64,000 nucleotides of DNA from Eledone cirrhosa (Eukaryota), in contig OZ024745.1 of assembly GCA_964016885.1 (NCBI GenBank), forward strand, positions 17,980,001 to 18,044,000, given 5' to 3'. Positions within the stretch are counted from its first letter, which is position 1; every line of letters begins with the position of its first letter. Shown one piece after another: positions 3,160 through 62,009 of the stretch. A program made the position numbers and the translations under genes. The notes under the pieces are model-generated. The model was not told where the DNA came from. It did not search any database and saw nothing but the letters and a program-made list of their open reading frames with translations.

Positions 3160-5642
3160 TCAGCTAGTGTTGGGTATGTAGTATAGGGTGTGTTTCTGGT
3201 GTTTGATGCTAGATGTGGTGTTAGGTTCCAGTCCGACATTGCTATATATAGGGCTTAAATTTTGGAAGGAATGTCTGAGGCGGTGCTGGCAAGTTGCAAA
3301 CACCTCAGATTTTTTGTTAAGTAGGTTACGGTTGGAGAAGATAATATTGTGTGTCTCTAGTATACAGAGGTTACAGAATTTATTAGGTGGTTTGTACGAG
3401 GTCGCGCTGCCTATCACTTCCCATTTGAGTGTGTATGGTTTATTTTTAGATTTTAGATAGTGTATGTAGCTAGAAAGTGAGGTGGAGTTGGCTAGGCTGT
3501 GCTTTTTGAACGAGTGGATGTGCGAGTTATATCTGATTTTGAAGCAGTTAGAAGTGGAGCCTACATAGGTTTCTGAAGAGTTATTAGTCGTGACTGTGCA
3601 TGAGTATATGACATCCTTGGTTAGGCATTTTTTATCTAAAGGGCAGGTTCTATTAGCTCTACAGTTACAATTATTCTGTGCGTTAGTCCGCTGGTTATAA
3701 TGCAATGCGGAAGTCTGTGTGGTGGATATAGGATTTTGGGTGTTCGGGTTGGCAACCCTGGTGTTATTACTTATACTAGTGTTATTTCTATTGTTACTGC
3801 CGTTGCTATTGTTGCTTGCTACAGTGGTATTTAGAGGGTTTGCATCCTGTTGTGATTTTGTTTGTTGGAAGTAAGAACTAATTTTACTATTATTGCTGCT
3901 AGCTATGTGGTATGCTAAGTTAGGCGTCGTAGAGTATGAGATTTTAATGGTGTTTTTGTTTAAGAGGTTGTGGTACTTGTGTCCTAGAGGGAAGTTTTTA
4001 TCTAGTAGTGAGAAGAAAGCCCTAGGTATGTTGGTGGAGACATTTAGGTTGAAAGGAGGGTTGAAAAATGTATTATTTCTTCTTCTATTTTTGCTTTTAG
4101 TGTTTGGTGTGTTGCTTCCTCCTAAGGCCTCACAGTAGTTTCCATGGTAATGGTTACTTCCTGTGGCACCCTCCGCTTTGGTGTACTTGTGGTTGCTATT
4201 CCTATTATTAGATTTCCTCATGGACATGTTGTGCGAGATTATGTTGTAGCTATGTGTTTTCTTAGGTAGGAACTCAATTTCTATATTATGGCCGGAGCTA
4301 GCTAATGCTTGATTGTAATATTGTGAGTTTTTGCTAAATATGTTTGCGTCATAGGACAGACTAGAGATTCTATTGGACACCCCCTTAGAGATAGAGTTTA
4401 ATATTGATCTAGGGTGATTAGACTTGGTATCTACGTAAATAAGTTTCTCATTAGGCTTATGGAAAGGTGTATATATTTTTGAGTCTAGGTATAGTGTGGC
4501 GTCTAGGAAGTTAACATTTTTAGTGTTTTTGTCCATGGTGATACTAAGGTTAAAGTTTTTGAATGTCTTATGCAGTTGTTTTCTAGTTCTTTCTATATTA
4601 AATTTTTTATATTCTATGAGTAGAAGTGCATCATCGCGGTACAAACCACCGTTGAGGTAAGGGAGGTCTTTATGGATTTCATTGAGGAGGTATAGGCCGA
4701 CCAAATCAGTGACCTGCGCCGAGTCACTAGATCCCATGGTTATGTCGAAGTTGTTGTGCGTATCCTTGCGTGTCCATAGTTGGTCCTCGACGGTGATTAT
4801 GGTTTTACGGGCCGCAAGGATGACATCAACCTGGGCTCTAGTCAGGTCGCTATTGGTCATGGCCATGATAAGTGCCTTATTTAATAGGATAGGGGAAATA
4901 GAGATGTAGTATGAATTGATATCAAATTGAATAAATTTGTTGTTCTTATTATTCTTGATATCCTTAAACCATTCAATTACTTCACCCGTATTTCCCCATT
5001 GTTTAAGGTGTATCTTGTGTTTAATTTGTGGGATGATTTTATCCAAAATCTTCTTGCTGATAATACCAATGTCGGACTTGGAAGGGCAGATAAGTCTTAT
5101 CGTGGGGTTGCTGATGAAGTTCTCCTTATGGTCCTTCAGAGAGAATCTAGGGGGGTTCGGAGTGAAAGGTTGTGTATGCCTCTGTAGTCCTAGTTTAGAC
5201 ACTATATTATAACCCTCTACATTAATATCTTCTAAGTTTTTCAAGGTGGTTTTTTTGTAGCTTTTATGTAGTTCATTATATATAAACTTTCTATAAGTAA
5301 TATAATCTAGGCTGTATGTGTTATTAGTTTTATCTGCGTGTACAATAATTTTATTACTAGTTTTGAATCCACTAATAGAAGTGTTAAGTTTGTTTAAGAA
5401 GGTGTTGCTTCTAATATGGTGCTTATTGTATTTAATGTTCTTAACTAGTTTAACTAGGTCATTTTCAAAGGAGTTAAGTAGAGTGTTATGAGGGGGGCTT
5501 TTAAAGGTTTTAAAGCCGAAGGAGTCAAAATTGTTAGTATTATTCAAGTTGTTAGATTTGTTTCTATCATAATGGAATGTCCTCCATCTCACTCTATTGA
5601 TAAATGAATTTACACTGTTGATCAGCAATTTCTCATATGTAT

Positions 5643-5661
<19 letters not shown>
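3160..5661 (-). CDS. Naiad PLE polyprotein: reverse transcriptase + GIY-YIG endonuclease (833 codons, no stops; extreme N-terminus replaced by the inverted pLTR)
   Basis: FINRVRW..FGFKT..PP..FENDL N-terminus, ADKT motif, QFDINSYY (motif A), MGSSDSAQVTDLVG (B'), GLYRDD (C), FLD, CNCR..CPL..CL knuckle, VIY..TYVG, CNLC, LLNKKSE..CQH. The track start is a TTG lying inside the inverted repeat. Confidence 0.93.
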
Positions 5662-7094
<1,433 letters not shown>

Positions 7095-17292: not shown

Positions 17293-19630
17293 TTATTGTT
17301 CATTTAGCTTGGGTTTGAATTTATCAATAAAATTCTTTTCTTTGATTTTTCTCTTGATTTCACTTGGGCTGTGTAATTTGTAGAATGGGAATATTATAAA
17401 TATTCCCTGACCACATGTTGCCAGGTGGCCGCTTAGGGGTATCTGACGGACATTTGGGTCTCTGATTTGTTGACGGTGTACCCGTGCACGTTCCGATAGT
17501 GCATTTCCAGTTTGACCAACATATAGTTCTTCACAATTCGGGCATTTAATGCAGTAAATTAGATTTCTGCTTTTGCAGTTCATATTTGCATTTGGGAATA
17601 TTTTTCCAGTTTTGTTTTCATATATTGACAGGCGTGTATGGATTGACATGTGCCGCATCGATTATCATTGCATTTAGATACAGTGAATGATTGGTCTTTG
17701 TTGTTAAGGTCAAACTTTGCTTTTGTTAGCAATTGCTTCAAATTTTTTGGCTGTCTTTTACTAAGAGTCAAAGATCGATCTGTGATTAAGCCTTTTAATT
17801 CATTACTTTGAGCAATGATCGGTAGGTTTGCTTTGGCAGTGTTGAAGATATTCTGGTGACATGGGTTGTGTGTCATTATAAATGGTATGACCAGTTCTTG
17901 GTTTCTTCTTCCTTGGGTTGTTCTAAGTTGTTGTATAGGTATTTTTATAGCCCGCTGTATGCCATTTTCTATAAGTAGAGATGGGTATTTTTGTTTGAGC
18001 AAAAATTCTCTTAGTTCTGTTAGGCGTTTGTACCTGGTATTCGTATCTTCTACAATGGTACAAATTCTTCTGGCTAGGCAGTATGGGATGTTGCGTTTTG
18101 TATGATGGCACGGTGGATGGCACGGTGGATGGCACGACTTAAAATTCAGATATTGATGGGTGTCTGTGTGTTTATAATATATATCCGTGGGAATGGTGGT
18201 GTCGTTTTTGATTATCATTATATCTAGGAATGGTAATTTGGTCCTACTCATCTCTTTTGTGAATTGGAGAGATGGGTGTAGGTTATTCAGGATGATATTG
18301 AACTCATCCAGAGTATCTAGAGATTCTGTCCAGATGATGAAACAGTCGTCAAGGTATCTCTTCTAAAATGTTTCAATGTACTTTCTAAAGCCAGTGCAAT
18401 ATTTTTCCTCTATTTCTTGGTAGAGTTGTTGTTCTAAGTATCCCATTACAGAGTTTGCGTAAACGGGAGCAAACTTCGTTCCCATCGCTGTGCCTCTAAT
18501 TTGGATGTAATTCTTTCCATTGAAGAAGAAAGTGTTGTTTTCCAGAATAAGTTTAACTGCGTCTAATATAAATGGCGCTGTGAATCTAATGGGAATCACT
18601 TCTCTATGTTTTTCCACCCAGTATTAACCGCCTTTATTCCTAAATCATGTGTAATGTTGGTGTAAAGGCTTACCACATCAAAACTGAGTAGAAGTGAATT
18701 CGTTTCCGTGGTTTTGGGAAGATGGGACAGGAAGTCGATATCATCCCGGATAAAACTGGGTCTGTGAATACATAGTGGTTTCAAAATAATGTCAACAAAA
18801 TTGCTTAGACGGTGAGTGGGGCATGTTGGACCAGCTATAATAGGTCTAAGTTTTAAGTCTTTTGGGTGTAATAATTTAATGTACTCACTGTTTTGTTCTC
18901 TTACTGCCAGTTGTATTTCTTTTGACTTGTGAACTTTCGGTAGGCCATACAGGTTGCTGGGTTTCGGCTCAAAATTGGTGATGTAGTCTCTTTCCTTATC
19001 AGTAAATGAGTTGTGGTATTTTGAAGCCAGGTTGTTGATCTTCTTCATGATGTTGTGGTCTATATTTGACGGTATTTCATGATAGAATGTTGTGTCTTTC
19101 AGTTGTTCCTCAACCAAATCCTTGTAGTATTCAGTATCCATTATAACAACTGCACCCCCTTTATCTGCTTGTTTAATTATTATTGTTTTATCATTTTGTA
19201 TACGTTTAAGTGCAGACATTTCTGATTTGTTAATGTTTGGCCTAACATTAGTATTATGTCTAAGAGGAAATTTAGACAGGATGTCAATGTATTGGTCGAG
19301 ATAGATATTTCTTCCTTTTGGCGGAGTGAAATTTGATTTATTCTTTACTAGTGATTCATCACTCTCATTATTTTTATCAGCGAAGAATTCTACAAGACGT
19401 AATTTTCGACAGAATTCTTGGGTATCCTCCTTCAGTTCTTGGTGGTTGACTGTTGGAGTCGGTGTGAATTTCAGTCCTTTTGACAGAATTTGCATTTCAT
19501 CATTGTCAAGATCTCTTTTAGATAAATTAATTATTTTAGGATCTACGTGTACAGCTGTTTTGGGTATGTTTCCTCCTGGAGTTTTTCTTTTTCCGGTTTT
19601 TGTTGTCCTGACGTTAAAACATGAATTTTT
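17293..19630 (-). pseudogene. Neptune ORF2: RT + zinc-knuckle linker + GIY-YIG, broken by frameshifts and a stop
   Basis: [89 protein letters not shown]; spread over track ORFs 18596, 18363, 17580 and 17293. Confidence 0.92.
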
Positions 19631-19882
19631 CTCTGTTCAGGATTTATATTCCTGTTGGTGTTCGCTTGATGAACGTTTGGTCGTGATATTATATTTGGTT
19701 TCGTTATGTATTTTGTCCTATTTTTGGTATTCTGTATATTATTTTCCTTCCTGTTAGCATTATTTTTAACAACTGGGAAAATGACTAGGTTTGCTTTCAG
19801 GTTTAGATCGCTTTTTCGTCCAGTTTCTTGTGGGCAATCTCTGTTGAGATCTTGAGAGTGATCTGGTTATTCTACGTTTTGT

Positions 19883-20887
19883 TTACACATTCCTTGTTGG
19901 TAGTCTCTGTTGAGATCTTGAGAATGATCTCCTGGTTTTACTACTTCTCATGGTCTGGTCAAAGGAATACCTATCGTGTTTGTGCTTTTTGTTCATGTTG
20001 TGTGCGATAGGGTGTTTTTGTAGAAAAAGCGAAGAGTTATTACCGTAGTTCTTCTTTGATTCGAGGTAAGGTGAGTGTTTGTGTTGGCACGTGTTCTGGC
20101 GTATGTTGTGTTGATGAGATTGTCCACTTTTAATGCTTTTTCTCAGGGTTCCAGAGTCTTTACCGTAATTTGCAGCATATTCATCGAGAAATAATTGTTT
20201 CTGCTGCAATACCTTTCTTGATTTGTTTTCTTCTTTTGAGATATCTCCGATCCATAGTTCTCGTAGTTTTTCAGCTATAATACCAGTCGTTAGCTTTGAA
20301 ATTTCAACTTCAATTTGGTCATCAATAGCTTCATATTTGGCTTTGTAGCGGGATTGTTTACATTCAGAAATGGAGATGTCGGTCCTGAATGTTGTCAATG
20401 TAAGTTCCCATCGGAGTTTTGTTTCTTCTTCTGGTTCTCCTGCAATTTCTGTAATTAGGTATTTACGAGGGAGTATGGGTGCCGTTAGAGAGAGCCATTT
20501 CGAATGTATTTCGACATATTTTTCGCATCTGTATGCTTTCCAGAAATTTTGTTTTCTTATGTTATGGAATTTTTTCCATGTCTTCCACATTTCTTTTCTT
20601 ATTCGATGTGTTTTGTTTTCCAAATTTCTTTCGTTTATTTCTGACATCCAAGGGGGTTGTGGTAGGCTTTCTCTTGTATCTTTGATAACTGTTGGTATAA
20701 TTTCAGCTAAATTCTTAATTTCAGAGTTTATATGTTCAGTTATAAGTTTGCCGTCTGTAGATTGTTTTTCTATTTCCTTTAAAATAGAGGATTGTGTGTC
20801 CATCATCGTGATAAGTGTTGATAATTTCGATATCTCCTTTAGAAATCTTTCTGATTCTGTTGGTTTCATTTGTTGCTTTCCAGACAT
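19883..20887 (-). CDS. Neptune ORF1, helical/coiled-coil-like protein of unknown function (originally ran to ~19543; premature stop and frameshift)
   Basis: 334-codon ATG-initiated ORF between the 5' pLTR and ORF2; the in-frame repeat SRSQQRLPTRN recurs past the stop. Confidence 0.75.
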   Translation of the reverse strand: MSGKQQMKPTESERFLKEISKLSTLITMMDTQSSILKEIEKQSTDGKLITEHINSEIKNLAEIIPTVIKDTRESLPQPPWMSEINERNLENKTHRIRKEMWKTWKKFHNIRKQNFWKAYRCEKYVEIHSKWLSLTAPILPRKYLITEIAGEPEEETKLRWELTLTTFRTDISISECKQSRYKAKYEAIDDQIEVEISKLTTGIIAEKLRELWIGDISKEENKSRKVLQQKQLFLDEYAANYGKDSGTLRKSIKSGQSHQHNIRQNTCQHKHSPYLESKKNYGNNSSLFLQKHPIAHNMNKKHKHDRYSFDQTMRSSKTRRSFSRSQQRLPTRNV

Positions 20888-20919
20888 GTTGGCATATACA
20901 CAATAGGAATATATATATA

Positions 20920-21292
20920 GATATAGATAGGTAAATATACACGGGTGTGTATGATTGTGTATAGAAGATTATATTAATAAGAGGAATTCCAACTTTGTCT
21001 GATTTACTCGTTTTATTTACAATCCTTTAAAATATATATAATGGTATTATAATGAAATAGTATGATAGAATATTAAATTCTAAGTGTTAATTGAACAAGT
21101 ACTTTCATGCTTTCGCAATCTTCAGGTTCATGATATGTGGTGACAGTCGAGTTTGCAATTTTCAACTGTAATGAGATGGGTAAATTTCCTACCTTTTATA
21201 CATTTTATACAGAGAAAAGTGGCTCCAGAATGCAAAGCCCTGTAAACTGTATTTCGACCAATCAGTGTGTAGTTTCACTGAATTATTACAGC
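20920..21292 (-). repeat. 5' pLTR of the Neptune element
   Basis: Near-identical to 16705-17077; ends about 30 nt upstream of the ORF1 ATG. Confidence 0.95.
21092..21130 (-). ncRNA. Minimal type I hammerhead ribozyme (5' pLTR copy)
   Basis: Identical to 16877-16915. Confidence 0.85.
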
Positions 21293-21395
21293 ATATATAA
21301 TGGTGATGAGTTAGTTTTGCGAGGTTTTTGATATTCTGGCAATATTACACAAATATGACCCTCCCAAGTATAACAATATATAAAGTATAACATCT

Positions 21396-22162
21396 CGGAA
21401 GAAGGAGACATAAACACCACTTTCTACCGCAAAGCAGCGTGCAAGGACTTATTTGTGCATTATAACTCAGCCCTCCCCAACAACGCTAAGAGAGGCTATG
21501 TCCTAAATGAACTGACACGGATCACTAACAGATGCAGCGACCCGATGGGTGTTCTCACCCATACCACGCAATTCCGTAATCTACTCAGATCTAATGGTTA
21601 TCCCAAGCGACTGATTAACGGAATTAGAGACCCCAGACCCAGTAGACTGACACCCACTAGAAAACTTAATATTAGCAGGTGCTTCTTTAAAATCCCCCAC
21701 CTGAGTGAATATACCACGAACGCCATCCGCAGGGCCATACGGACGGAGGGACTTGACATACATTTGGCCCACACAGGACCTTCGCTGCGAAGATGCCTCT
21801 CCAACAAACCCTACGAGGCAGATGGGACGTGTTCCCTCAGCAACTGCCCGATACGGGGGGTAGATTGCCTACGCACCTATGTCGTATATAAGATTCAATG
21901 CGATAAATGTAACAAGTTTTACATAGGTAGCACCATCCGACCCCTACATGTTCGTATCAAGGAACATATCAACACCAACGCATCTTCCTTCCGTAAACAT
22001 ATCCTTAAATGCGGAAACCCACAGGGTAGACCCTTGGTCACAGTCCTAGCGACTGAACGCAGCATCGGATCCTTAAGGATAAAGGAAGCACTTGTTATTA
22101 AGAACCTCAGACCCCCACTTAACAACCGGGCTGAGAGAAATGAGCTGACATGGCTAACTTAA
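21396..22162 (+). pseudogene. PLE RT thumb + GIY-YIG fragment
   Basis: FYRK..HYNSALP..NGYP..CSLSNCPI..C..VVYKIQCDKCNKFYIGST.RPLHVRIKEH..EALVIK..PPLN. Confidence 0.88.
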
Positions 22163-22950
22163 CCATAATGACCATTCACAGCCTACGGCCTGCTATCTTC
22201 ACACACACGCACGTATATGCATACCCATACGCATGCACACACACTTCTATATTTTACACGCACACATGTTTTTACAACCTACCACCTTTCACACCCTTTG
22301 ATTTCCAGCTTCTACAGCCCACTATCTTTCACACACAAACGCACTCACACATATACACACACAGTTACACACACACATGTATACCCATACGCTTACACAC
22401 ACACACATCTATATTTATACACGCACACATATTTTACAACCTACCACCTTTCACACCATTTGATTTCCAACTTCTACAGCCCACTATCTTTCACACACAC
22501 ACACACTCACACATATACACACTTACACTTATACACACACAGTCACACACACATATATATTTACATACACATATCTTACGGCTTTCACACGCTAACGCAC
22601 CCTCTTGATTTAACCCATTTGGTCAGTAGCTTTTGCCACAGCTTATCACGCGCACGCGCATTCTCTCCCTCGTTTAAATTTTAAATATTTTTCTCCCCAT
22701 AACGGCATTCCTGTCTTAACGACATCACCACTTTCTCCGCTTGGCCTGTTTTCCCCCCTTTTGGAACTTTTCCCCCGTTGATGGGCGTGAGCCCGAAATA
22801 TTGGGATTAAATCTCTACTACGGTAACCCTTCTACCTTTGTTTTGTTTTCATCTTTGTCTCTCTCTCAACTTTCACTTTCACCTGTTTTTCCTATCTATA
22901 TTTCACTTCCTACCTCGAGATTTCCCTTTGCATTGTTGTGGCTTTCTTAA
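21396..22950 (+). mobile_element. 5'-truncated PLE (Nematis-like), thumb + GIY-YIG plus CA-rich 3' UTR
   Basis: Coding to 22162; ~165-bp tandem duplication in the UTR; degenerate hammerhead at 22771-22806; ends near (TA)n. Confidence 0.8.
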
Positions 22951-22955
22951 ATACG

Positions 22956-22996
<41 letters not shown>

Positions 22997-23102
22997 TAAA
23001 ATAACAGATTAAATATTTGCTCTACGGTTCTTATATATTTGTTATATATTTATCCTTATCGAGCCCTCTTTGGATTTTAGTCTTCAAATTTATTATTATT
23101 AC

Positions 23103-23141
<39 letters not shown>

Positions 23142-23146
<5 letters not shown>

Positions 23147-23815
23147 AAAATACTGCAGGTAGCACATGGATAACATGTAATAAAATGAGTCCCTCATCAG
23201 TGATTTGCCGACGATCATAGATATTTCATTGCATTAAAAATCATATACCTCACGTCGGTGCAATAATAACCAAAATAAGTTATTAGGACAATTAAAACGC
23301 GTAAAGCGAGTGAGACAGGAGAACAACAAAGAGTATGGCTAACCAGGGGAAAGAAACAAGCTTCAAAAATTATTCTGTTTAGCATAAGCTAGGTGAATAT
23401 ATGAGCGCTTTAGAACAGACCCGACACGAGCGATGGCTATGTGAGGAGAGAGAAAAATAGCCATCGTGGTGTACAGGATGAAATGAAGAGAAGAGAGAGA
23501 AACAGTGAGTGAGTGAAAGTGTGAGGAAGAGTTAACTGACATGACAGAGGGGGAGAAACAGAGAGAATGGGGGAACAGTAAGAGAGAGAGAAAAAAACAC
23601 AGAATCGCAGTGGTAAATATATGTAATAAAATATAGAGAAAAATACTGCAGGTAGCACATGGATAACATGTAATAAAATGAGTCCCTCATCAGTGATTTG
23701 CCGACGATCATAGATATTTCATTGCATTAAAAATCATATACCTCACGTCGGTGCAATAATAACCAAAATAAGTTATTAGGACAATTAAAACGCGTAAAGC
23801 GAGTGAGACAGGAGA
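23142..23815 (-). mobile_element. Non-coding partially tandem element (493-nt unit, identical 181-bp direct repeats), retrozyme-like
   Basis: 23142-23322 is identical to 23635-23815; homologous to 29205-29926 in both the repeat and the pyrimidine-rich interior. Confidence 0.75.
23194..23264 (-). ncRNA. 71-nt structured RNA motif with permuted hammerhead core words (second copy at 23687-23757)
   Basis: Ungapped alignment to 29255-29325 with compensatory changes in three helices. Confidence 0.65.
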
Positions 23816-24526
23816 TCAAGCTAGTGGTGGCTTGTTCTGTTCATGCGTCGGAACTGATTCCATTTTATTGAAGAGTTTGATATTCTGAATATCTACAGTT
23901 TATTGCTCATATTTTAAGTAAATAATCAATTAACATGCTAATAAACGGTATACGTACTACGTAGACACTCTATAGACGATACATCGATATATATATAACT
24001 TTTATCTGATTTTATCTGATGAGGACTTACTGAAAAAACAGTACCTCCGAAATATTTATAATAAAATATGAGTTGATTACGTTGAACGTCTATATTTATT
24101 AATATTTTGAATTAATATATATATATATATATATCAAATACTCCCACATATAAATAATCTCTCATAGCTTAATAAGTAAACCACCTGTAGCTATAAGACA
24201 TCTTCAGCGTTATCAAATAGCTTCATAGATACACGATACCTTTATATTCAGGCAACCATTACTCCATTTATTGCCATAATATTAAGTCAATAACTTAGTG
24301 ACTATCCATTGCTATCCTTCATGCTTGATAAATGTAACTCTGAGATAAATAGATCGATGTATCGTCTATAGAGTGTCTACGTAGTACGTATGCCGTTTAT
24401 TAGCATGTCAATTGATCATTTACTTAAAATATGAGCAATAAACTGTAGATATTCAGAATATCAAACTCTTCAATAAAATGGAATCAGTTCCGACGCATGA
24501 ACAGAACAAGCCACCACTAGCTTGAT
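23815..24526. repeat. Inverted duplication, arms 23815-23988 and 24353-24526
   Basis: 174-bp arms with about 4 mismatches; the spacer holds a hammerhead tail and (TA)n. Confidence 0.9.
24012..24061 (+). ncRNA. Minimal hammerhead motif in a short PLE tail (23990-24115)
   Basis: ttat-CTGATGA-gga..tactg(a6)cagta..tcc-GAAA-tat-TT-ataa. Confidence 0.65.
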
Positions 24527-25929
24527 TACTAGGTCTGGCAGAGATTGTCTAGCAAGTAAGAACGAATAAATAACCTTAATAGAAATACTGCAAAATGTAC
24601 GAAAGGTTAAAATATATCAGACTGCTTCTGCCCTTGTTTGCCAACATGGACTGTATACATACAGACATGATAGGTTTAGATGTATCATACAGAACAGCAG
24701 TTTTATTGGAAAAGAACACATTTCACAAAAGGTATGAACATATAACAAAGAACAATCACATTGGGATATGTTAATTCATACAGACATTAGGAGTGATACT
24801 AGGAATACAAAATATCGCATAATCGATGTATCTATTCCAATAGACGATATTATTTTTGAGTAAAGTGCCAAAAATGTGAAGATAATAAACACTTGATCAT
24901 AATAGATAAACAGAACATGGCGATAGTCAAAACCATCTCCATAAATAAATAGATTAAGCGATGTCAAAAATATATACCCAGCACATCATATCTTAGATAT
25001 ATAAACGACTCATTAATATTAGCATTACTGGACGTTGTATATGCATGTCATAGAGTATGTGGAATATAGAAGTAAGGAAAATGAGGCTGATTGCATTCAA
25101 AGCACAAGGATATCCGCTCGAATGCGCATCGGAAGTAAATAATATCAGCACAATTATTGTATTAATATTAATGATATCACGCATTTAATGTATATTTCCA
25201 GATGATTCCCTGATAACGTCTGATAGTATGGTCAGTAAAGATATCACTACGCAGGTTGGTATTAACAAGTTGTAATAAAGAGAAGAAAGCCGTGTAAAGC
25301 ATGAGGGAATTAAATTATATGGATATATTCACCATAAATTTAATAACAGTGGAGAATGTTTAACATCCATGAAGCTGTGTTGATATACATTATATACTAA
25401 AGACAGGGGTGATAGACGAATTTTCAATATCTCAAGCACCAGATTGTATGAGAATGAAGGGTAACTATATTATTCAACCATGGCAGAATAATATAGAAGA
25501 AAAGAAGGTTTAAAATAAATATAAGAAGATACACAGATTGAAAGAAAAATGAATCGTAATTGTGTTCTATTTGCTAGTGATTCGAACGATATGTTTTAAG
25601 TGGAAATATAAACGGATATTGGGAAACTATGATTCGGAATTAACGCAAAATAGAACAAACTAACTACCATATCATGTTTGACGCCAGCAAAAGAATATTA
25701 ATAGGATACTGTAGGGTTGTATAAGAAAACATATCTGATTGTAACCGGAAATTTGGAATCACATTAATAAGTAATAATATAACTCTCAGCTCTATCATGT
25801 TCTGAAACACAATACACCACCCGGTCCAAGAATCGAAACCACGACCTCATGATCGTGAGACGACACGCTAAACACTAGGATCTGTTTATTTCATATGTGT
25901 AGATTGGTGTTATATATTATTACACGGAA

Positions 25930-26114
25930 CGGTGGTTTGGCAGTATCGGTAGAGCGTCAGATACCATGCTTTTCAGTATAGAGTTATGGGCCTTTGTGTT
26001 CTGAGTTCAAATCCGCCAAGGTTACTTTGTCTTTCATCCTTACAGGGTCTATAAAATAAAATACCAGTGATGCACTGGGGTAATCGCTGGCCTTGTGCCA
26101 AAAGTAGAAAAACT
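25930..26114 (+). mobile_element. tRNA-derived SINE
   Basis: Same head, core and tail as 6912-7094. Confidence 0.8.
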
Positions 26115-26567
26115 ATATATTATTACACGAAACCATAATACAGTATGCCTCATGTTGATGATGTTTGGAGTAGATATAAGATAATAAAGACGAAAGCACA
26201 AAGCCAAAGATAATTAGAGCACATCATAATAACCTAGTAAAAGCAAATGAGATAATCTTTCAGTTTTCAGTTTGGGAGTATTTAAACTATGTAAATCAAG
26301 TTAACAACAGTGATACCAGATTACGTATGAGCAAAGAGAACCTCTTAAATATATATGTAATCTTGGTATATTCCCTTCATTGTACTCATGGGAAAATTCC
26401 AATAGCTTGCACTATACAAATGATTGAATCAGGTAGTAATTCCCAGCTTTAAGGGAAATATTAGTCTTGATAATTGTTCTGCCTCGGGCCATAGAAAAGT
26501 ATGTTGCTTGACATAGAATTTACTGCAGCTACGTAAATAGTTTTTATTTTAGTATATATCAAATTGG

Positions 26568-26781
26568 GGCGGTGGATTGGCAATATCGGTAGTGAGTCGG
26601 ACACCATGCTTTGCAGCATATAGTTACGGTCCTTTACTGTCTGAGTTCAAATGCCGCTAAAGTTGACTTTGCTTTTTACGGAGTCGATAAAATAAAGCAC
26701 CAGTAACATACTGAGGTCGATTTAATCGACTTACCCATCCCCCTCCAAATTACTGACCTTGTGGCTATACGAGAAATCATT
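26568..26781 (+). mobile_element. tRNA-derived SINE, longer subfamily
   Basis: Same core plus the extra gtcgatttaatcgac hairpin and C-rich segment before the tail. Confidence 0.8.
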
Positions 26782-28460
26782 AAATATATCAAATTCTTAT
26801 ATATTATATGTAATTTTACTATGAATCAACATATTTAGTTTACAGAGTTATCGGTAGTGATAAGTATAGAATATTTCCCTTTTGTTTACTCCCTCAAATT
26901 TAATGGATGCACAATATTGCAGTACAATACCAGTATAAGAATAAACGTATAATCATGTTTATTAAGTCAAGCCGACATAGTAAATTTACTAAAATCATAT
27001 TAATGAATTGTTTTAAACGTACTTGCTTTAATGAGGTCGCTTCACATATTAAGGAAAGTGGGTTTCACTATATCTCAGATAGGACTAGACGCAGGCATGT
27101 CTCAGTTTTTAAGAAATGTGCACCCCAAACATGAGTTGGGGGACTAGTTGATCATCGAACTTCTGACACATCATCGTCAACACCGACTGAGAATCCATCA
27201 ATCATCCTCAATACATTTGAAATTGTTAGAGTAAATATTTTATACTCAGTGAATATTTGCCGTGATAGATTAATCCCAAAGAACAGCTTACCTACAAATC
27301 CATTTTCAAACAATATTTTAAACACGTTAATAAATATTTCTAAATATATTTATGACTATGACATTGAAATCTAAAATTATGTTGACGCTCTAATCACAAT
27401 ATAGTGAAATTGTATTCCTCTCTGGTCTTGAAAATAACTTTTCTGCAATTGAATTATTTTCTTTGTAAATAATGAAATTAGTTGGAGGCTAAATTGAAAT
27501 AATAACGAAAATATATTTGCCAAATAGATAGCTATGTTAATATTCAGCCTGTGTTTGACAATTGCCATATAAATGCATGCATTGTTATCCACAATCAGAA
27601 TATAAATTGCCATATATAAAAAGAATTATATTGTAATATTCTCTTTTGTTGGGTTTTAAACAGATTAGCGTGTTACTTAATCAGAAATTATATAAATTAT
27701 TTTCTAGTTATGTCAACATATTTTCAAATATAATTTGAAAAAATAAAGGACTATTTTATTTTCATTCCGTAAACGGGCAATCACGATAATTTAATTTTTG
27801 TCGTGTTCCCAAAATGATCTTAACATAAATTATGTATAAAAATACCCTAGATTTTCATGTTTCCGTTTTCTTCGGTTAAAACAGAATGAAGATATTAGAC
27901 AGTGTGATGCCATACCTGATGCAACGGATATTGCACACTATGTTCGGCGGCACCATTTTATCTGCATAGTGCAGCTGCGATATGCTGTCCAACAAAGTGT
28001 GTACAGTTAACAATCGCAAATACAACATAATGCAAATATCACTATATGTAGCATTATGTATCAAAGAAGTGTGATCAAAGAAGAACCACATGAAAACCAC
28101 AAAGATAGTTTTACTTTAGATGATATATAGCTTTCCTTCACCAACGATATTTATTTAAATACTTATTTACACACAAAAATCAAAATGATTAACATCTTCC
28201 CAGATACCTTTCTTAAATCAAGCGACAACTTATCACGTTTGATATGATTACCTAGGAAGCGTCCATAAACTTCTATAAGTGCCCTAAATTATTCAAACAT
28301 GGTGTTTTCCATTCTGGCATTAAGCATTATGGTAAATCTTGATTATTTTTTTTCTTTTAATCTTTTTACTTATACGCGGTATATAAACATATCACTTTTG
28401 TAATGTTTTGTAATAACTGAATATCATTATATACGTACAGGGCCAATACTGCCAATTCAC

Positions 28461-28639
28461 ATTGGCAGTATCGGTAGAGGGTCGGACGCCATGATTTCCA
28501 GCATAGTTACGTCCCGTTATGGTCTGAGTTGAAATCCTGTCAAGGTTAACTTTGCCTTTCATCCTTACGGGGTCGATAAAATAAAGTAACAGTAATGTAC
28601 TGGGTAATTGCTGGCCTTGTGCTCAAAGTAGAAACAATT
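28461..28639 (+). mobile_element. tRNA-derived SINE
   Basis: Same family; a 10-bp inverted copy of its 5' end precedes it. Confidence 0.82.
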
Positions 28640-29067
28640 ATATACAAATATAGCAATGATACATACTCCGTAAAACTAAATAAAGAAATTATTTGACACA
28701 TTTAATTGTAGAGTAATTGTTTCTAATGGATTACAATAAAATCTCTATGCACCTACATACACCTAGTATAACGCCGCCTTCGATCCATCATCTTGAAATA
28801 GTAGCCAGATGTGCATCAAGCGGTTACTACCTGTACTTAGAAAATCAGAACTTAGGTATACTATAATTCTAGATATAGTATCTTTTTTAATTTATTAAAT
28901 AAATACTATACCTAGAACGGATATTTATATATATATATATATTTGTAGTAAGGTTGCTGGATGCGTCCATAGGCAGTATGCCGGTTGATCACTCATTGCT
29001 TCTTCGGATCAGAGTATAATAATATGGAAAACGAAGAATCAGTGATGCATCGGAACACAATTCATTA

Positions 29068-29160
29068 ACGTATTACAATTGTTTCTCCAGCGAACAGCTC
29101 GAGGTGCGATCTATTTGTGGATCGACACTGACTCTGGATTCGCAAGTTCCTCCGATACGT
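29068..29160 (-). ncRNA. Type I hammerhead motif with long stem II in a PLE tail (28945-29190)
   Basis: acgtat-CGGAGGA-..tccag...ctgga-GAAA-caattg-TA-atacgt; U4G core change. Confidence 0.6.
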
Positions 29161-29204
29161 ATAGTGACTTCGAAGCAAAGCCTCTGTACATATATATATA
29201 TATA

Positions 29205-29923
29205 TACATGTCTCTCTTTCTCCACCCAATTCTTTTTATCCCAATAACTTATTGTTCGCGCTGGTCTGAGGTATCAGATCTTTAATGCGAAGAAATACCT
29301 ATGATGGCCAGAAGATCACTGATGATGGATAGTCCTGGCTTCTTGCTCTATTTTTTAATTCACATGTATCACTTTCGCAACAACGCAGTACGCCATTTTT
29401 CATTCCTATATTTTTCCCTTCGCTGTGTCTTGTCTTTTTCTCTTCCCTTACTGCTATCCTCTTTCTCTATCCACCTTCTCTCTCCTTGTATCTCTTACTT
29501 TCAATCACCCCCTCTGCTTGTCACCCTCTCTCAGCTAGCCACTTCCTCCCACTTTCACTCACTCACTCTCTACTACTCACCCTCTCTCACTTCCACCCGT
29601 CTGACCCGTGTGAAATTCTTTTCTCGCTCACATTTTTCATGGCTTGGATGCGTCTTTCGTCTTCTCATCAAAGATTCGCTAGATCTTATGTTCACATGTA
29701 TCACTGACGTGTTTTCTCATTTTCCACTCTTTACGTTGCCTCACCATTCTTGATTGTTTACATGTCTCTCTTTCTCCACCCAATTCTTTTTATCCCAATA
29801 ACTTATTTTAGTTATTGTTCGCGCTGGCCTTAGGTATCTCATCTTCAATGCGAAGAAATACCTATGATGGCCAGAAGATTACTGATGATGGATAGTCCTG
29901 GTTTCTGCCTCTATTTTCTTATT

Positions 29924-29926
<3 letters not shown>
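29205..29926 (+). mobile_element. Non-coding partially tandem element (~560-nt unit, ~150-bp direct repeats), retrozyme-like
   Basis: 29205-29354 resembles 29759-29917; flanked by (TA)n on both sides; homologous to 23142-23815. Confidence 0.75.
29255..29325 (+). ncRNA. 71-nt structured RNA motif with permuted hammerhead core words (second copy at 29818-29888)
   Basis: Same architecture as 23194-23264. Confidence 0.65.
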
Positions 29927-29954
<28 letters not shown>

Positions 29955-29963
29955 GGAGGGGGT

Positions 29964-30152
<189 letters not shown>

Positions 30153-37391: not shown

Positions 37392-40300
37392 TCTATATAT
37401 ATATAAAACTGAAGATGTCTGTCTGTGCGTGTGTATGATGTTTATGCATTTCCACATGTCTCTACCGATTTTGATGGGGTTTTTTCCAATGTGCTCCAAA
37501 TTTACTGACGATGGTCAACGCGATACAAACTTTGCCAAAGATTTCCTGCTTCTATGAAAAAAATCTATAAAACTAAATACATGCTCTAACTCTCTCTTGC
37601 CACCTCAACTGCTGCGTCACGTGCTGGTGAGGACGAAGGGCAGCGTTCCAGACGCCGACGTACGGACGCCGCTACTTGAATCTCACCAAAGATATTATAT
37701 TTTCTTGTCCTTTTTGTAATTATATTTTTCTTTCTTTTTAGTAATATGAGAAAAGAAAATAATATAAATATTCTGATTAAAAAAAATAGCGAAAAAACTT
37801 TTTTCAACAAAGTATGATTTTGATGATTTTTTTTCCAGTGTGCTCCAAATTATCGCCCCTGTTTACGCTCTTTTGTGCTATAACTCAGGCGTGCTTGGCT
37901 TACAGGCTTGACCTACTATTTGACGTGCATTCTTGCTACAACTTACTTAGTACTCAATTTCCACTTATTCACTGTTCAATTGAAATTTTTCGCTACCCCC
38001 TTTTTTGCTCCATTACCTGCATAAATATTTACGTGTTCAGTTTAATTAGTACTTCTTGTTTCCCTTTTTAAACTTACTTTTAAAATATACATTGATACTA
38101 CGGTCATGCCACCCAAGAAAAGACCACGACTTAGTCGCCAAACTAAAGCTGCTTCTGTTGACAAACGAAGAAGAGCTACAGAGTCGTCCCTCGAGAATTT
38201 GACTCGGTTGTAACAAAATGCAACTCGAAATGCAATTTCCCGGTCAACCGAGACAGAAAAACAGAGGAGCATTCGGCTTTCTGGGAATGCATTTCTAACT
38301 GCAGTTGCACGTGCAGCGCAAACTGATGAACAATATTCTCGACGACGAAGCAAACATGCTGCCTCCACTGCTGCGGCGCGTGCTGGTGAGAACGAAGAAC
38401 AGCGTTCTAGACGACGAGGAAAAGATGCCGCCTCAACTGCTGCGTCACGTGCTGGTGAAGACGAAGGACAGCGTTCCTGACTCCGACGTACGGAGTCCGC
38501 TTCAACCGTTTCTGCGCGCGCGTCAGAGACTGCGCAAATTCGATTACACAGACCAAACGCCAATGCACTCTGCAGGAGTGCTCAACGATGTACTCCGAGG
38601 ATCTGTTGTACTCAGTGGTCTCATAAGGCTTTCCACTATGGCCCTACATTTATCTATGCACTGCTGCCAATTGAAATTGTCAAAACTTATTGAACTCATA
38701 CAATCAGGTAGGGCCTTTTGACATGTTAGGTGCTACGTATACACCGTTGAGTAGCAAAAGAGAGGCCTCCCACACGCCCACATGCTCATTTGGCTAATAA
38801 CGAAAATCAACGCCAGCAGCATTGACAGCATTATTTCAGCAGAAATACCCGACTCGAAATTGGACAGAGAACTCCTCAACATCGTCACTGCTCACATGGT
38901 TCACGGGCCATGCGGAAACGGTTTCAACATGATTTCGCCATGCTTTAAAGAAAGAAGGTGCACTAAGAGGTATCCAAGGCAATTCCTCCGAGAAACTCGG
39001 ACAGGTGGTGACGGTTACACATTATACCGCCGTAGGGAGCCAGAGGACGGAGGACTTGTTGCGAAAACCTCAAATCATCACGTCGACAACCGGTGGATTG
39101 TACCCCACTGCCGACTTCTGTTTAAAATGTTTAACACCCACATTAACGTTGAATACTGCCACTCCGTCAAATCAATAAAGTACGTCTGCAAGTACATCAA
39201 TAAGGGGTCCGATACTGCGTGTTTCGGTCTTACAATGGAGAACAGCCGAGACGAAATCACTCGATGCCAGGTCGGCTGATACATCAGCAGCAATGAAGCG
39301 TTCTGGCAATTCTTCCACTCTGCAATACACCATAACTACCCCCCAATCAAACAGTTGGGGGGTGCACCTCGAAAACGTTCAAATAGTCTACTTCACCCCC
39401 TCCACCGCTGCTGAGATAGCAGAGGAACCCAAGGACACCACACTTACGGGTTTTTTAAGTTATGCCGAAAGGATCCCTTCGCCAAGACCCACTTCTACTC
39501 TCATGCGCCATCATACTACACTTGGAACACAGACAACAGAATTTGGTTAAGAAGGGTGAAAGGACAACCCGTCGAGGGACATCCAGACATTAAAATCTCC
39601 CCTAACCTTGGGAAAGTCTACACAATTCATCCTAACCAACAGGAATGCTTTTATCTCCGACTTCTACTGCATGAGGTGGTAGGACCGACATCTTTTGACG
39701 ATCTGAAAACAATCAACTGAGAGGTTTGTACTTCATTCCGCGCAGCCTGCTTTAGACGGGGTCTACTGGAAGATGGCGCTCAGTGGGATTCAACATTGGC
39801 GGAGGCAGCTAAATTTACGCTCAGCGTGAAGTTTTCGACAACACTTTGCGGTGCTACTACATACATGCGTGCTAAGCGACCCTGTATCCTTATGGGAGAA
39901 ATACAAAGAGGACCTTTCCGATGACTACATACACCAAGGACAACTGCTACTCCCTCATTCCGGCGTACGACTCAGCGACGAATTCTTCATCAAAGCTCTC
40001 ATTGACATCGAGAACAAAATCCTAACTGGCGGCGGAAATGGCCTTCCATTCTATGGATTGCCAAAGGTTCAGCGAACGGGCTTGGACAAACTTCCGACGG
40101 GCATAATTCAGGAAACTGCCTACGACGTCGACGCCCTCGAACTGTTCATCAACGAAAACGACCCGAAATTGTTGCAGGACCAACGGCAGGCGTATGACAC
40201 AGTTTGCACTTCCATCCTTCAACGCACAGGGGGTATCTCCTTTTTGGACGCCCCAGGAAGAACTGGTAAAACATTCGTCACTAAAATCCTCCTCGCCAGC

Positions 40301-40525
40301 GTGCGACAGCAAAAAGGAGTCGCGCTGGCTGTGGCTTCTTCTCGGATTGCCGCAACTCTGCTGCCCGGAGGTAGGACAGCTCATTCCACATTTAAACTAC
40401 CATTCAACGCGACTTCAGACGGCACAATAACCTGTAATATCACCAAGGACTCTGACAAAGCAGAAGTCTTGAAAAGATGCCAGCTAATTGTGTGGGACGC
40501 ATGCATAATGGCCTATAAATCTACC
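37392..40525 (+). mobile_element. Helitron, internally deleted and 3'-truncated
   Basis: A|TCTATATATATAAAA..GTCTGTCTGT..CCGATTTTGATG 5' end; no CTRR/hairpin 3' end seen. Confidence 0.85.
38106..40525 (+). pseudogene. Helitron RepHel remnant (N-terminal ~23-aa repeats, HUH Rep, PIF1 helicase N-half)
   Basis: MPPKKRPR start, E*QKRGLPHAH (motif II), HGPCG, KYVCKYINKG (motif III), DAPGRTGKTF Walker A, GGRTAHSTFKLP, LIVWD Walker B; several stops and frameshifts. Confidence 0.92.
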
Positions 40526-41946
40526 ACGTAGATTCTGCTAGTCTGAGCTTTAAATTGACTTTGTATAAACTGATGAATTTCTTGTCAACTTCATCCAATG
40601 GATGACTCCGTGTCCCCATACTATGTAGTCCGCCATCACAGTAGATGCCAAACACTGTTGACCTGAAGGAAGTAAATATAGAGCAACACTAATGCTCAAA
40701 TGTATTTTAATACAAAACTCCCACAAGTCAATTTGTGATTACCTACATTATTCGTAAATAAAGCATTTTACAGAGATGTAAGATGTTCACTACTGTAAGA
40801 CATGTTAATCCTTGAGAAATGTTTAACCTAAATTGTTCTGCCAATATCACGAAAGTATATAATCTTAACAATTGAAAGTTTCATTTATCCTCCTACTTTT
40901 CCTCTAACAGAGAATCACTGTCGAATTAAATGATAACTCCGAATGCTTTATATTTTTAAATTTGTTCAATAATCTACAAACATATAATCTTATATTAAAA
41001 ATAATATATCTCTTGACAATAAGGCTTTCACGGAAAATATATCATATGACATATTTTCTATTTGTACAAGATCTGATGAAAATTATGTACTACTAACATT
41101 CCCAAATTGTCTCTGGAAATCGCATATTGTTTACATACGAACACGCTTTGTACAAATCTTGATAGAAACTAACATCTTCACACACAGCTTTCCTCTTGAT
41201 CATATAGAAGAGTTATCTACAGGCTCGTAATGACCTAGTAAATACGAAGACTAGAAATACTTTCAATGCAGACAAGTATTTATACTATTTTGAAATAAGA
41301 TTACTTTCAACAATGTAAGGAAATAAATTTGCGTCTAATTTTATGAACATGAAATAGAAGAAGGAAATAGTTGCACTGTATAATGTCTAAAGGAATCAGT
41401 CTTCAGTTCATATTGATTCCTTTCTTTTTCATATTCCGTAGTGTTAATGGATACTTTTATCGGATTAAGTAAATGAATGCACTTTAAATTTTTATAAATA
41501 TTTCCTGCATAAACGAGTTGTGTTCTAGCAACTATAATCGCTATTATCATAAACAAAATCTATATCGACAAATCTTCGAAGCTATTTTAATCCTCCTGTT
41601 TTTCTTTTTCTAAAGTGGTGGGAGTAGTATTATATAAACGTTCTGACAGCCAGTATGTCGTAAACATAACTAGGCTATCTAAGGGTATTTAAAATTGATA
41701 CCTCAAGACTTCCATACTATAATGAACGAATATGTATATATATATGTATATATATATTTATATATATATATTTATATAAAGTTTTAATATGGATGAGATT
41801 CTACAGGACTAGAACTGTTTCATTCTTTAGAAATCATATGCATTGAGTACCTTACTTACTGTTACTGTGGTTACCTCCGATTCAACCCGGAATAACGTAT
41901 ATTTATATATATATATTTATCTATCTATCTATCTATCTATATATAA

Positions 41947-43343: not shown

Positions 43344-43385
43344 ATCATAAATCTTTCGTTGCACATCTGCAACATCGTCAGTGGT
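43344..43385 (-). ncRNA. Minimal type I hammerhead motif
   Basis: acca-CTGACGA-t-gttgca(gatg)tgcaac-GAAA-gatt-TA-tgat; one stem I mismatch. Confidence 0.7.
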
Positions 43386-43620: not shown

Positions 43621-44802
43621 TTATTTACTTATGTATACTTCTCTTAGGTCAGTGTTGTTTGTTTGGGTGTTGTTGTTATTCCATTCATTCTTTCTATTTA
43701 GCCTTGGTCTTCTAAGTTCTATTTCACTGGCCTCTCTGATTTGCCTATCTGCTGGGTCATTTCTATGTTTAGATATTATTCTAATTTCTATGTTGTCTAT
43801 GTTACCGTCATATTGTTGTCTAGCATGTTCGTATGGTACTGACCCGTTTTTTCGTCCTTTTAGTTCCCCCCAGTGTTGGTCTATCCTTTCACCTATGCTA
43901 CGAGCTGTCTCACCTATGTATGTTGTTGTCATGTTTCTGCAAGTACCCTCTGTACAACTTATGCTATAGACTACGTTTCTAGTTTTACAGTTTATCCGGG
44001 GGTTCACCTTACATATGATACATTTCCTATTGGTACAGTGGGTTTTCTTAAAAGGGTAGGTTTTGCTGATCAGGGATTTTATGATGGTTCCTGGCTTTTC
44101 TACCACCTTTATTTTTAAGTGGGTCTTTCTCAGGGCCTTTCTACACTGGTTAGCTAATTTCCCTCCAGGGGTAGCGTCCACAAACATGACACTCTGGTAT
44201 CTCTGGTTGTCGTACCATGAGGTGGCTTTCCCTATCTTATGTCTAGCCCTATCTAAGCTATTCCATGATTTGCTCCTGTATAATGGGCAAATTCCTTTCA
44301 TGTCCACTTCTATGAGGGTCTTATACTTCTCCATGGCTCCTTCGTATACTCTGATTCTGTCTCTTTGGTTGTAGCCAGAGAACTGCATGCGGTTGATGAA
44401 GTGTTGGATGTGTCTTTCCATTTCTGTTGGGTCGCACATGCGGCACACATTCTTTATCACTCGTACCACATCTGCGATCAGAATATTAAACTTAGCACTA
44501 CTGGACATTGCTGAGTTTTTGAGTATCAGGTATTTGGAGGCCATGGGTTTAGCATAGTATGAGTGGAGAATTTGGCCTCTCTCGTCTATGGTGTTAATCC
44601 AGAGTTCTGTGTCTAATACAGGTAGTCTACTGTTAGGGTGTTTGGAAAGGAAGTCGATAGTTACAGTTATTCTCTGGTGTATGGAATTAGCTATCTGCTG
44701 GATGCTTTCCATCGTGCTACGTTCTAAATCAAACTTGTTAGTGTTCTCTAGTGGGGGTGTTCTTATAACTATATTGATATCGTCTACATAACGAGAGTAC
44801 AT
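43621..44802 (-). pseudogene. PLE RT (from YVDD) + GIY-YIG fragment, open frame
   Basis: RYVDD, LPVLD, YYAKPMAS, SGY, C..RKCIIC..C..NVVYSISC..YIGETAR..RQIREA..LNRKNEW. Confidence 0.9.
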
Positions 44803-44913
44803 CTGTTATTAATTCTGGCAATATTACACAAATATAACCCTCCCCAAGTATAACAATATTTGTTTCGATACACGATTTCATATAAAAAACCTCGCAAAAC
44901 TAATTCATCGCCG

Positions 44914-46973: not shown

Positions 46974-47636
46974 TGTTGAAAAAGGACCACAGAATGAACC
47001 AAATCCTACGAACACACGATATCATAAAGAGCAAAAGACAATCCAAGTCAATGAAAATCATCCTAACACATGCCAAAGTACTGCCAACCACAACAACGAA
47101 ACCCACAGTAAAAAAAATGCGATAGACCCAAGTGTGGCATTTGCATCAAGCTAATAGAGGGTTCGGAATTCTATTCCAAAGAAGGACAACGTTTTATAGT
47201 AAAACACAATTTCACATGTGCATCGGAAAATCTAATATATGTATTAACTTGCTCAGGTTGTCGAGAACAATACATAGGCCAGACCAAAAACAGCCTCCAC
47301 CGACGCATGACTGTCCATAGATCCCAAATTAAAATACGGGAATACAGGAAAATACCACTGAGTGAACACATTGATACCTGTGCCGCCCAAAATCATTCCA
47401 ACTTCAGAATCTTTCCCCTCTACAAATTTAAAGATAATGCCACCCACACCCAGCGCATCAGCAAGGAATCTTACTTCATTAACAAATACGGACCCCGTCT
47501 AAACACTTCTCCCTAAGACGAACCCACAACATACACACGTCAACATACATACCTACATCAGCACACATCTCTACCCCCACATATAAACACAATGACATAC
47601 GTAAACACACATGCTCTATGGTGCAACACAAAAAAA

Positions 47637-60876: not shown

Positions 60877-62009
60877 AATTCCATATATGGTAAAACTGAT
60901 TGTCACAAGGATTGGTCAAAAGTTTGTTGTTGAGACACATAATGCTATCATGGCAATTTGTGGAAGGAAGGGGTAGCTGAACCTGCCAGTAGAAGAAAAA
61001 GGGAGAGGGAGTGGAGGAAACCTAGTCGTGCGTTAATAGTGCCAACTACAGCAGGGCAGAAGGTCAAGCAAGTATACTAGGGAGGGGGAGGGGGAGTCAA
61101 AACAATAAGTAAATCAATATGGAGTAAATATATAGAAGAATACCAACAATGTTAAAAATATAAAAAAACAATTTCTGGTGACTATACCCTAACGACAGTC
61201 ATCAAGTCTCTCACTGGTACTGCTAAACTATAGGAAAGTTTACTAGGTGGGACGGAATTGTAATGAGACCATTTTAAGAGTTAGTAGTAATCAACCGAGT
61301 ATATCTTACGGTGACAGGTCAACAAGTGGGTGCCAAAATACTAAAGAAACTACCACGAAATAATAATTCAGATCCCGAAACTAATACAAAATAAATGTGT
61401 CAACCCTAGGCACAAGGCCAGCAACCACCCAGTGCAAAAAATAAACTAATACGAAATAATAATTCAGAATCCCGAAAATGAATACTAATACTATCTCTAA
61501 GGGTGCCGCTACGATACAAAAATTCTAGTGCAAATTACATAAATGCTCGTACGAGGTATGTGAAAAATTTGATACGGAAAATTAATTCAGAACCCCCCCC
61601 CCCCCTAAAAAAAAATACTGATATACGAGAAATTAAAGCAGAGATACCACTAAGAAATGTAGAAAGCACGGAAATGGGGCAGCCATCGGATAAGAAAGTA
61701 AGTATCTGGGGTCTATCACATCTGCTATAAAAAGCGGAGTCGGCCAATTCTATCATAGAATAGGGGATGGGGGTGGGGGTACTGAGGCTACAAAGGACCG
61801 AGGGGCTACCTCGGGTGGGCGAGAAAAGGAAAAGGACGACGACAAAGAAGGAGGACTGGGGAGGAAGGACTAAGAAGGGATGGGGTGGAGAAGAAAATAT
61901 AGAGGAAACGATAAAAAGATATAAAAGAAGATCTTACGTCTACCTTTGCAAGCAGGGGTTACCAGTGGGGTGTTACAGCCCTTGTCTACCCCCCGGTCAT
62001 TATGGGGTT

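Follow-up and report, generated by a model that had tools for sequence, protein, structure and literature searches.

Hammerhead ribozymes have been dissected into three sequence blocks, C, G and S, that are held to be uninterruptible and can be arranged in six possible orders (Eckert et al. 2023; PMC10085705). According to the consulted parts of that paper, RNAs of type SGC (HRIMA-1 and its variants), mostly of metatranscriptomic origin, cleave in vitro at 0.007-0.19 per minute; block C continues into stem II, the two ends of the RNA lie before block S and after an interaction helix, and the class descriptor specifies CUGAUGA(U)G with at least two more stem II pairs, together with CGAAA (PMC10085705). 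Here we describe a motif, repeated in the genome of Eledone cirrhosa, that reads as a complete hammerhead core with its blocks knotted in the order S-G-C and two extra helices opening stem II at the core, and that likely cleaves itself after AUA or AUC, a reading to which we assign a probability of roughly 0.7 on the strength of the sequence. It was noticed in a stretch of 64,000 nucleotides (nt) (GenBank assembly GCA_964016885.1, contig OZ024745.1, positions 17,980,001 to 18,044,000 of the forward strand; hereafter the window, whose own numbering is used below), which is animal DNA, rich in microsatellites and holding many retroelement fragments, from a 3.0-gigabase assembly.

The motif is carried by a non-coding tandem repeat, for which two kinds of mobile element offer comparisons. 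Animal retrozymes that lack long terminal repeats (non-LTR retrozymes) are, in the consulted parts of the sources, non-coding tandem units with one hammerhead each, present in thousands of copies and probably moved by Penelope-like elements; their hammerheads are of type I and their circles strongly self-paired (PMC7229834; PMC7761336; bioRxiv 10.64898/2026.07.22.740005). Naiads, as characterized in the consulted text of Craig et al. 2021 (PMC8557442), have (TA)n targets, partial tandems and inverted 5'-truncated copies; they are described as being without a canonical hammerhead, with the flags HHR_core and HHR_half_core, and those of cephalopods are called remnants. The partly consulted reports on two further systems state that Penelope hammerheads cleave slowly, in dimeric form (PMC6765202) and that engineered hammerheads with a one-pair helix II, G10.1-C11.1, do cleave (PMC544870).

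Architecture of the motif and covariation of its helices

The motif occurs four times in the window, and all four copies lie where a first-pass annotation of this DNA had placed them. That annotation had described an element of 71 nt with four helices, a to d; the motif is really about 100 nt long, since helix e, which closes it, and hairpin f had been overlooked. Read from the 5' end, its elements are e, hairpin f, a, b, three bases, the 3' strand of stem III, UH and stem I, followed by a UUAA linker, a', one base, GAAA, stem III, six bases and b', and finally one base, stem I, CUGAUGA, one base and e'; the ends of the RNA lie in helix e.

Two copies are on the minus strand. The downstream one (23189..23289, e to e') is the first row of our 19-copy alignment, and its parts are backed by pair counts: e is at 23289-23286, hairpin f at 23285-23264, a at 23263-23259, b at 23258-23253, a kink-turn strand at 23252-23250, the stem III 3' strand with UH at 23249-23244 and stem I at 23243-23238; after the linker come a' (23233-23229), GAAA (23227-23224), stem III (23224-23220), the bulge strand of the kink-turn (23219-23214), b' (23213-23208), stem I (23206-23201), CUGAUGA (23200-23194), position 10.1 (23193) and e' (23192-23189). 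Its predicted cut falls between 23244 and 23243, and that of the upstream copy (23682..23782, e to e') between 23737 and 23736. Both plus-strand copies are damaged: at 29238..29330 hairpin f is shorter by 9 nt and the first stem I pair is broken (predicted cut after 29275), and at 29792..29893 stem I has a mismatch and a kink-turn G is changed (predicted cut after 29838).

Four matches to the core pattern in the window compare with 0.00 in 100 shuffles. Genome-wide, a looser pattern (linker, GAAA and CUGAUGA) has 3368+3638 = 7006 exact matches, a lower bound on the number of motif copies, and a reversed control has none; many copies are also found in two contig runs of unrecorded kind. Our sample comprises 174 matches from 130 loci plus the window, 135 of them full length. 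Nineteen real copies were aligned as subfamily representatives, and base-by-position counts refer to 144 regularly spaced copies, for which the search patterns had partly prescribed CUGAUGA and GAAA. Between the main family groups the monomers share just 52-66% identity, and conservation peaks over the motif. A spacing pattern designed to leave out the young families gave 177 matches versus 14 in controls; among the 30 loci fetched from it are many old, decayed relatives and some chance matches. At seven loci, older decayed repeat families show the same core wiring with a longer spacer before e'.

The fold itself is strongly supported by covariation. Across the 19 representatives, 95.3% of the cells of a 35-pair structure are paired versus 86.4% after shuffling, and compensatory changes on both sides are seen in 18 of the 35 pairs; neither value was reached in any of 500 shuffles. 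Extra pair types were no more numerous than in shuffles (117/500), and slid-register controls paired in 28-50% of cells. By helix, compensatory pairs number 1/4 in e, 5/7 in f, 1/5 in a, 5/6 in b, 1/6 in stem III and 4/6 in stem I, and RNAalifold, unaided, recovers e, f, b and stem III. The covariation that had been claimed for helices a, b and d is borne out, with some trimming: helix a has 5 base pairs (bp) rather than six, because the sixth is formed in only 5 of the 15 rows with letters, and helix c, which is stem III, also has 5 bp, because its outer pair is present in just 9 of 19 rows.

A second alignment, of seven older copies chosen for an intact 5' half and three young ones (54% mean column identity), places these helices around a hammerhead core. 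Stem III covaries in 4/5 pairs and stem I in 6/6, while A15.1-U16.1 is invariant in 10/10 rows, the pattern that a hammerhead requires. The core letters CUGANGA, GAAA and UH (H not G) are present and are surrounded by stems I, II and III with A15.1-U16.1 fixed; U16.1 is found in 143 of the 144 copies, and base 17 is A or C in 141 and G in one. The bases that follow A9 and precede G12 (10.1 and 11.1) form a standard pair in 127/144 copies (U-A 60, G-U 48, G-C 16 and A-U 3; the remainder are C-A in 11 and other mismatches in 6). Since 10.1 can pair with 11.1 in most copies, and with the 5' end of helix a in only 5 of 15 rows, stem II in the young families of this genome reads as opened at the core, one pair being followed by a four-way junction with e, f and a.

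A kink-turn consists of a 3-nt bulge followed by tandem G-A/A-G pairs, set between two helices, and kink-turns bind the L7Ae-family protein 15.5K/Snu13. The loop that joins b to stem III has a 3-nt bulge and then GA opposite GA, with G at position 1b in 139, A at 2b in 141, A at 1n in 141 and G at 2n in 123 of the 144 copies; the 1n A is fixed in all ten rows of the second alignment. This is a kink-turn signature, from which a kinked geometry is predicted. Such a kink would bend b back along the core, where b would stand in for the contact between loops I and II, and it could bind 15.5K/Snu13.

The motif resembles type SGC in its block order S, G, C, the short linker between its stems I and II, its interaction helix, its size and its core, and it probably works like a type-SGC hammerhead, but it lies outside that class as defined. 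The bases after CUGAUGA pair upstream in helix e, and a C precedes GAAA in only 17/144 copies. Block C of the published type, in the consulted parts of the paper, continues unbroken into stem II; in the present motif that stem is opened at the core, the three links between blocks are closed, and the RNA's ends lie in an additional helix, e, next to hairpin f. The remainder of stem II and the stem I/II interaction helix are on the 5' side, a kink-turn-like loop connects the interaction helix to stem III, and the carrier is an animal repeat in thousands of copies rather than a metatranscriptomic RNA (PMC10085705). Type CSG, as outlined in the same parts, likewise reaches stem III from stem II or the interaction helix by a short link, but its CUGAUGA comes first and that of the repeat last. 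Octopus goes unmentioned in the consulted portion of the supplement.

The first-pass annotation had suggested a hammerhead permuted circularly within its core. Its opening of stem II at the core and its assignment of helix b to the stem I/II contact both stand; the circular permutation does not, because S-G-C is the non-circular order of Eckert et al. and not C-G-S or a circular shift of it, which also sets the motif apart from hammerhead types I, II and III. Rfam, which had been proposed as a check, returned no family at gathering score in the window and, at E<=10 within 22900-30100, three weak matches with no ribozyme family among them. The fold breaks block C and therefore escapes both the Eckert descriptors and Rfam. 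We did not find this wiring described in the literature searched, which was mostly without subscription papers and figures.

The carrier repeat and its relation to Naiads

The minus-strand copies belong to a non-coding tandem insertion (subfamily 1, 23119..23819, minus strand) that was delimited by monomer BLAST on the window and also shows as a direct repeat with 493 nt spacing; it holds about 1.4 units, is 5'-truncated and has an end near a (TC)n/(TA)n tract. A second insertion of the same repeat, also found by monomer BLAST (subfamily 2, 29201..29935, plus strand), has (TA)n on both flanks and is 57% identical to subfamily 1 over the monomer. The predicted cut-to-cut monomer RNAs are 493 nt (23244..23736, minus strand; non-coding, 67% pyrimidine) and 563 nt (29276..29838, plus strand).

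Elsewhere in the genome the carrier is likewise a non-coding tandem unit of 445-624 nt, a range that contains 31 of 33 same-strand spacings, and among the 174 matches shared upstream homology never extends past the tandem units into coding DNA. Neighbouring copies form 30 tandem, 25 divergent and 3 convergent pairs. The first (TA)n after the core stands at a family-specific distance, for example 55-73 nt in 41/49 copies of one group. The insertion anatomy of the repeat is Penelope-like: its partial tandems are truncated on the 5' side, some copies have inverted 5' parts, the targets are (TA)n, and the 3' end is fixed near the ribozyme. With the non-LTR retrozymes it shares tandem non-coding units that each carry a hammerhead, but the hammerhead is not of type I, the monomers are pyrimidine-rich and weakly paired, and the repeat has inverted 5' parts and targets (TA)n. 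Folded as circles, five monomers had 37-46% of their bases paired, with z from -0.25 to -2.85 against 12 shuffles each.

The motif would likely cut the RNA of the repeat itself. In the mechanism we propose, read-through transcripts of the tandem units would be cut into monomers, the monomers may be circularized, and a Penelope-type reverse transcriptase, probably of Naiad descent, would copy them into (TA)n sites. Arrays of more than one unit whose 3' ends extend past the cut site would fit a circular or multimeric template.

The link to Naiads comes from core-word look-ups, of which the matches listed were parsed by eye with record names taken from file order. By this comparison Naiad consensus sequences of octopus, coral and a box jellyfish have the wiring at their 3' ends. 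The last 150 nt of Naiad_Obim and Naiad_Ovul contain e, f, a, b, the kink-turn and stems III and I, with GAAA before CUGAUGA at the spacing seen in the repeat, and the loop letters of hairpin f are identical between these two octopus Naiads and the repeat. Three Acropora Naiads and the record that by file order is Naiad-1_Movir have the e-f-a-b wiring with no clear kink-turn, several other Naiad tails, partly parsed, have GAAA ahead of CUGANGA, and the nematode tails among the matches listed have the ordinary order. In the Naiads that show this wiring a C before GAAA pairs, by eye, with helix a, and the opening therefore comes directly after A9. Naiads encode protein, whereas the repeat encodes none; the exact words of the repeat motif are absent from the Craig 2021 supplement, and the two kinds of element are alike in targets, partial tandems and inverted truncated copies as far as the consulted text describes them (PMC8557442). 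An octopus-Naiad-like tail was sought in this genome with two patterns, one of which gave 0 matches and the other 16, all of them variants of the repeat.

Penelope reading frames near the motif were considered as its carrier and set aside. Those at loci L054 and L059, for example, have ordinary hammerheads of their own and are separated from the motif by (TA)n, and we therefore take them to be independent insertions. At four loci, these two included, one Penelope-like family, a relative of the frame at window positions 43621-44805, is followed on its own strand by the motif at a distance of 0.7-1.3 kilobases. A shared target and a mobilizer link are both possible explanations of this proximity; the two loci read show separate insertion.

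The predicted cleavage site and competing explanations

Cleavage in some form is very likely, cleavage as a plain monomer somewhat less so though still likely, and a single predicted site, after AUA or AUC, is supported. An indirect sign comes from where insertions begin. Two patterns for copies that lack the 3' strand of stem III gave 238 + 121 matches, of which 200 were listed and tallied by hand after ten rows had been dropped (internal deletions, ambiguous inversions and one unclassifiable row). Among the matches listed, apparent 5' starts at distances of 5, 6, 7, 8, 9 and 10 from the linker number 25, 11, 28, 27, 14 and 13, and a further 72 at distance 11 are ambiguous with TA repeats. 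Distance 7 is the predicted cut, where the 28 starts compare with 13.7 expected when uniform truncation is simulated with real flanks (p=2e-4); starts at the cut or one base before it (7-8) number 55 versus 32.5 expected. Varying flank type, microhomology and class set gave 36 null settings, and the excess at 7-8 persisted in every one, with p from 0.04 to far below 1e-6. It is consistent with a reverse transcriptase that runs to the 5' end left by cleavage, and it may also have arisen otherwise, for instance because polymerase stalled at the fold.

Several observations weigh against self-cleavage and against the mobility proposed above. The excess of starts is only about twofold, comes from a hand tally of 200 of 359 matches and falls to p=0.04 under the least favourable null. 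The G10.1-C11.1 pair of the engineered precedent is present in only 16/144 copies, the octopus Naiad consensus seems, by eye, to draw its 10.1 base from the 5' strand, which leaves the register of the junction unsettled, and kink-turn position 2n is U in one family (16/144 overall). The sense strand gains no advantage over the antisense strand when nested folding alone is scored, and relatedness among the copies inflates the shuffle tests. Searches of 206 loci with other Penelope proteins and motif words as queries found no Naiad reading frame beside any copy, and pattern searches together with these loci revealed no autonomous partner in this genome.

We consider it unlikely that the fold, though real, cuts only slowly or conditionally, as a regulated switch that needs a domain-swapped partner copy or a bound protein. 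The 10.1-11.1 pairs, non-standard in most families, would suit this view, as would the tandem arrangement of the copies, the kink-turn as a protein handle and the slow, dimeric Penelope hammerheads described in the consulted part of PMC6765202. Stem III, however, is a full 5-bp covarying helix and not a short palindromic one that would force dimers, and all helices can form inside one copy. The dimeric or switching ribozyme that had been put forward initially is unnecessary as an explanation because two more covarying helices, e and f, clamp the opened core.

More doubtful still is a fold that does not cut at all and serves as a 3'-end recognition element for a retroelement protein, the hammerhead letters being kept for structure. 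Insertions do stop at family-specific distances just beyond the motif, damaged copies are numerous, and Craig et al., in the consulted text, saw no cost to Naiads without a canonical hammerhead (PMC8557442); yet the catalytic letters and the rule against G at the cut site are kept across families that are 52-66% identical, and 5' starts concentrate at the predicted cut.

That a second cut falls at the UA behind GAAA, as offered by the first-pass annotation and as in minimal Penelope hammerheads, is very improbable. In both subfamilies of the window the four bases after this UA can pair with a stem I strand, but the A-U pair it needs is present in 9/19 rows, its covariation does not exceed that of shuffles (40-141/500) and the whole alternative stays within the shuffle range. 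The bases concerned match kink-turn positions, and the stretch reads as the bulged strand of the kink-turn.

The words of the motif recur in at least 119 metagenome stretches; 80 were fetched (45 distinct contexts), none has both stems, and we regard them as chance matches because the helices are absent. A twister, suggested by the twister-like UUAAUGC linker, was discarded when no other twister elements were seen by eye. That complementarity arose by chance in the repeat and was carried along by its copying is hardly credible, for although all copies share ancestry and shuffle tests ignore kinship, substitutions on both sides of a pair turn up repeatedly in seven helices and when young families are compared with old ones, and the 80 metagenome loci have the same words without the helices.

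If the self-cleaving hammerhead is accepted, it would be a non-circular hammerhead at high copy number in animal genomes, it would account for the apparent lack of hammerheads in Naiads, and its kink-turn may bridge the short link between stem III and the interaction helix that puzzled Eckert et al. in the consulted text (PMC10085705). A broader proposal has, in our judgement, about even odds: that this is an active topology beyond the six-permutation scheme, a non-circular core enclosed by a kink-turn and by a four-way junction in stem II. It may then be the first hammerhead in nature whose folding or control depends on 15.5K/Snu13, and it would be the missing ribozyme of Naiads across animal phyla, driving a circular-RNA repeat family here.

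Other features of the window

An inverted repeat of 182 nt (97% identity, 348-nt spacer; 23815-23996 and 24345-24526) abuts the 5' end of the subfamily 1 insertion. A further repeat at 28867-29160, common to six of the sampled loci, adjoins the subfamily 2 insertion.

Penelope-like reverse transcriptase or GIY-YIG frames, one of them open over 833 codons, are found at 3160-5661 (minus strand), 17293-20968 (minus), 21374-22162 (plus), 43621-44805 (minus), 47112-47516 (plus) and 61870-63208 (minus); Pfam recognized GIY-YIG in 2 of 9 window proteins. The 833-codon frame is flanked by inverted 36-nt repeats beside (TA)n tracts (1862-1897 and 6497-6532). Downstream of the frame at 43621-44805 is a minimal hammerhead core in the ordinary order, with a 6-bp stem II (43354-43381, minus strand). 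Three copies of a repeat resembling a short interspersed element, presumably a cephalopod tRNA-derived one, lie at 25930-26110, 26570-26776 and 28461-28634 and recur elsewhere in the window. Broken reading frames at 38755-40531 (minus strand) look like what we take to be Helitron Rep/helicase.

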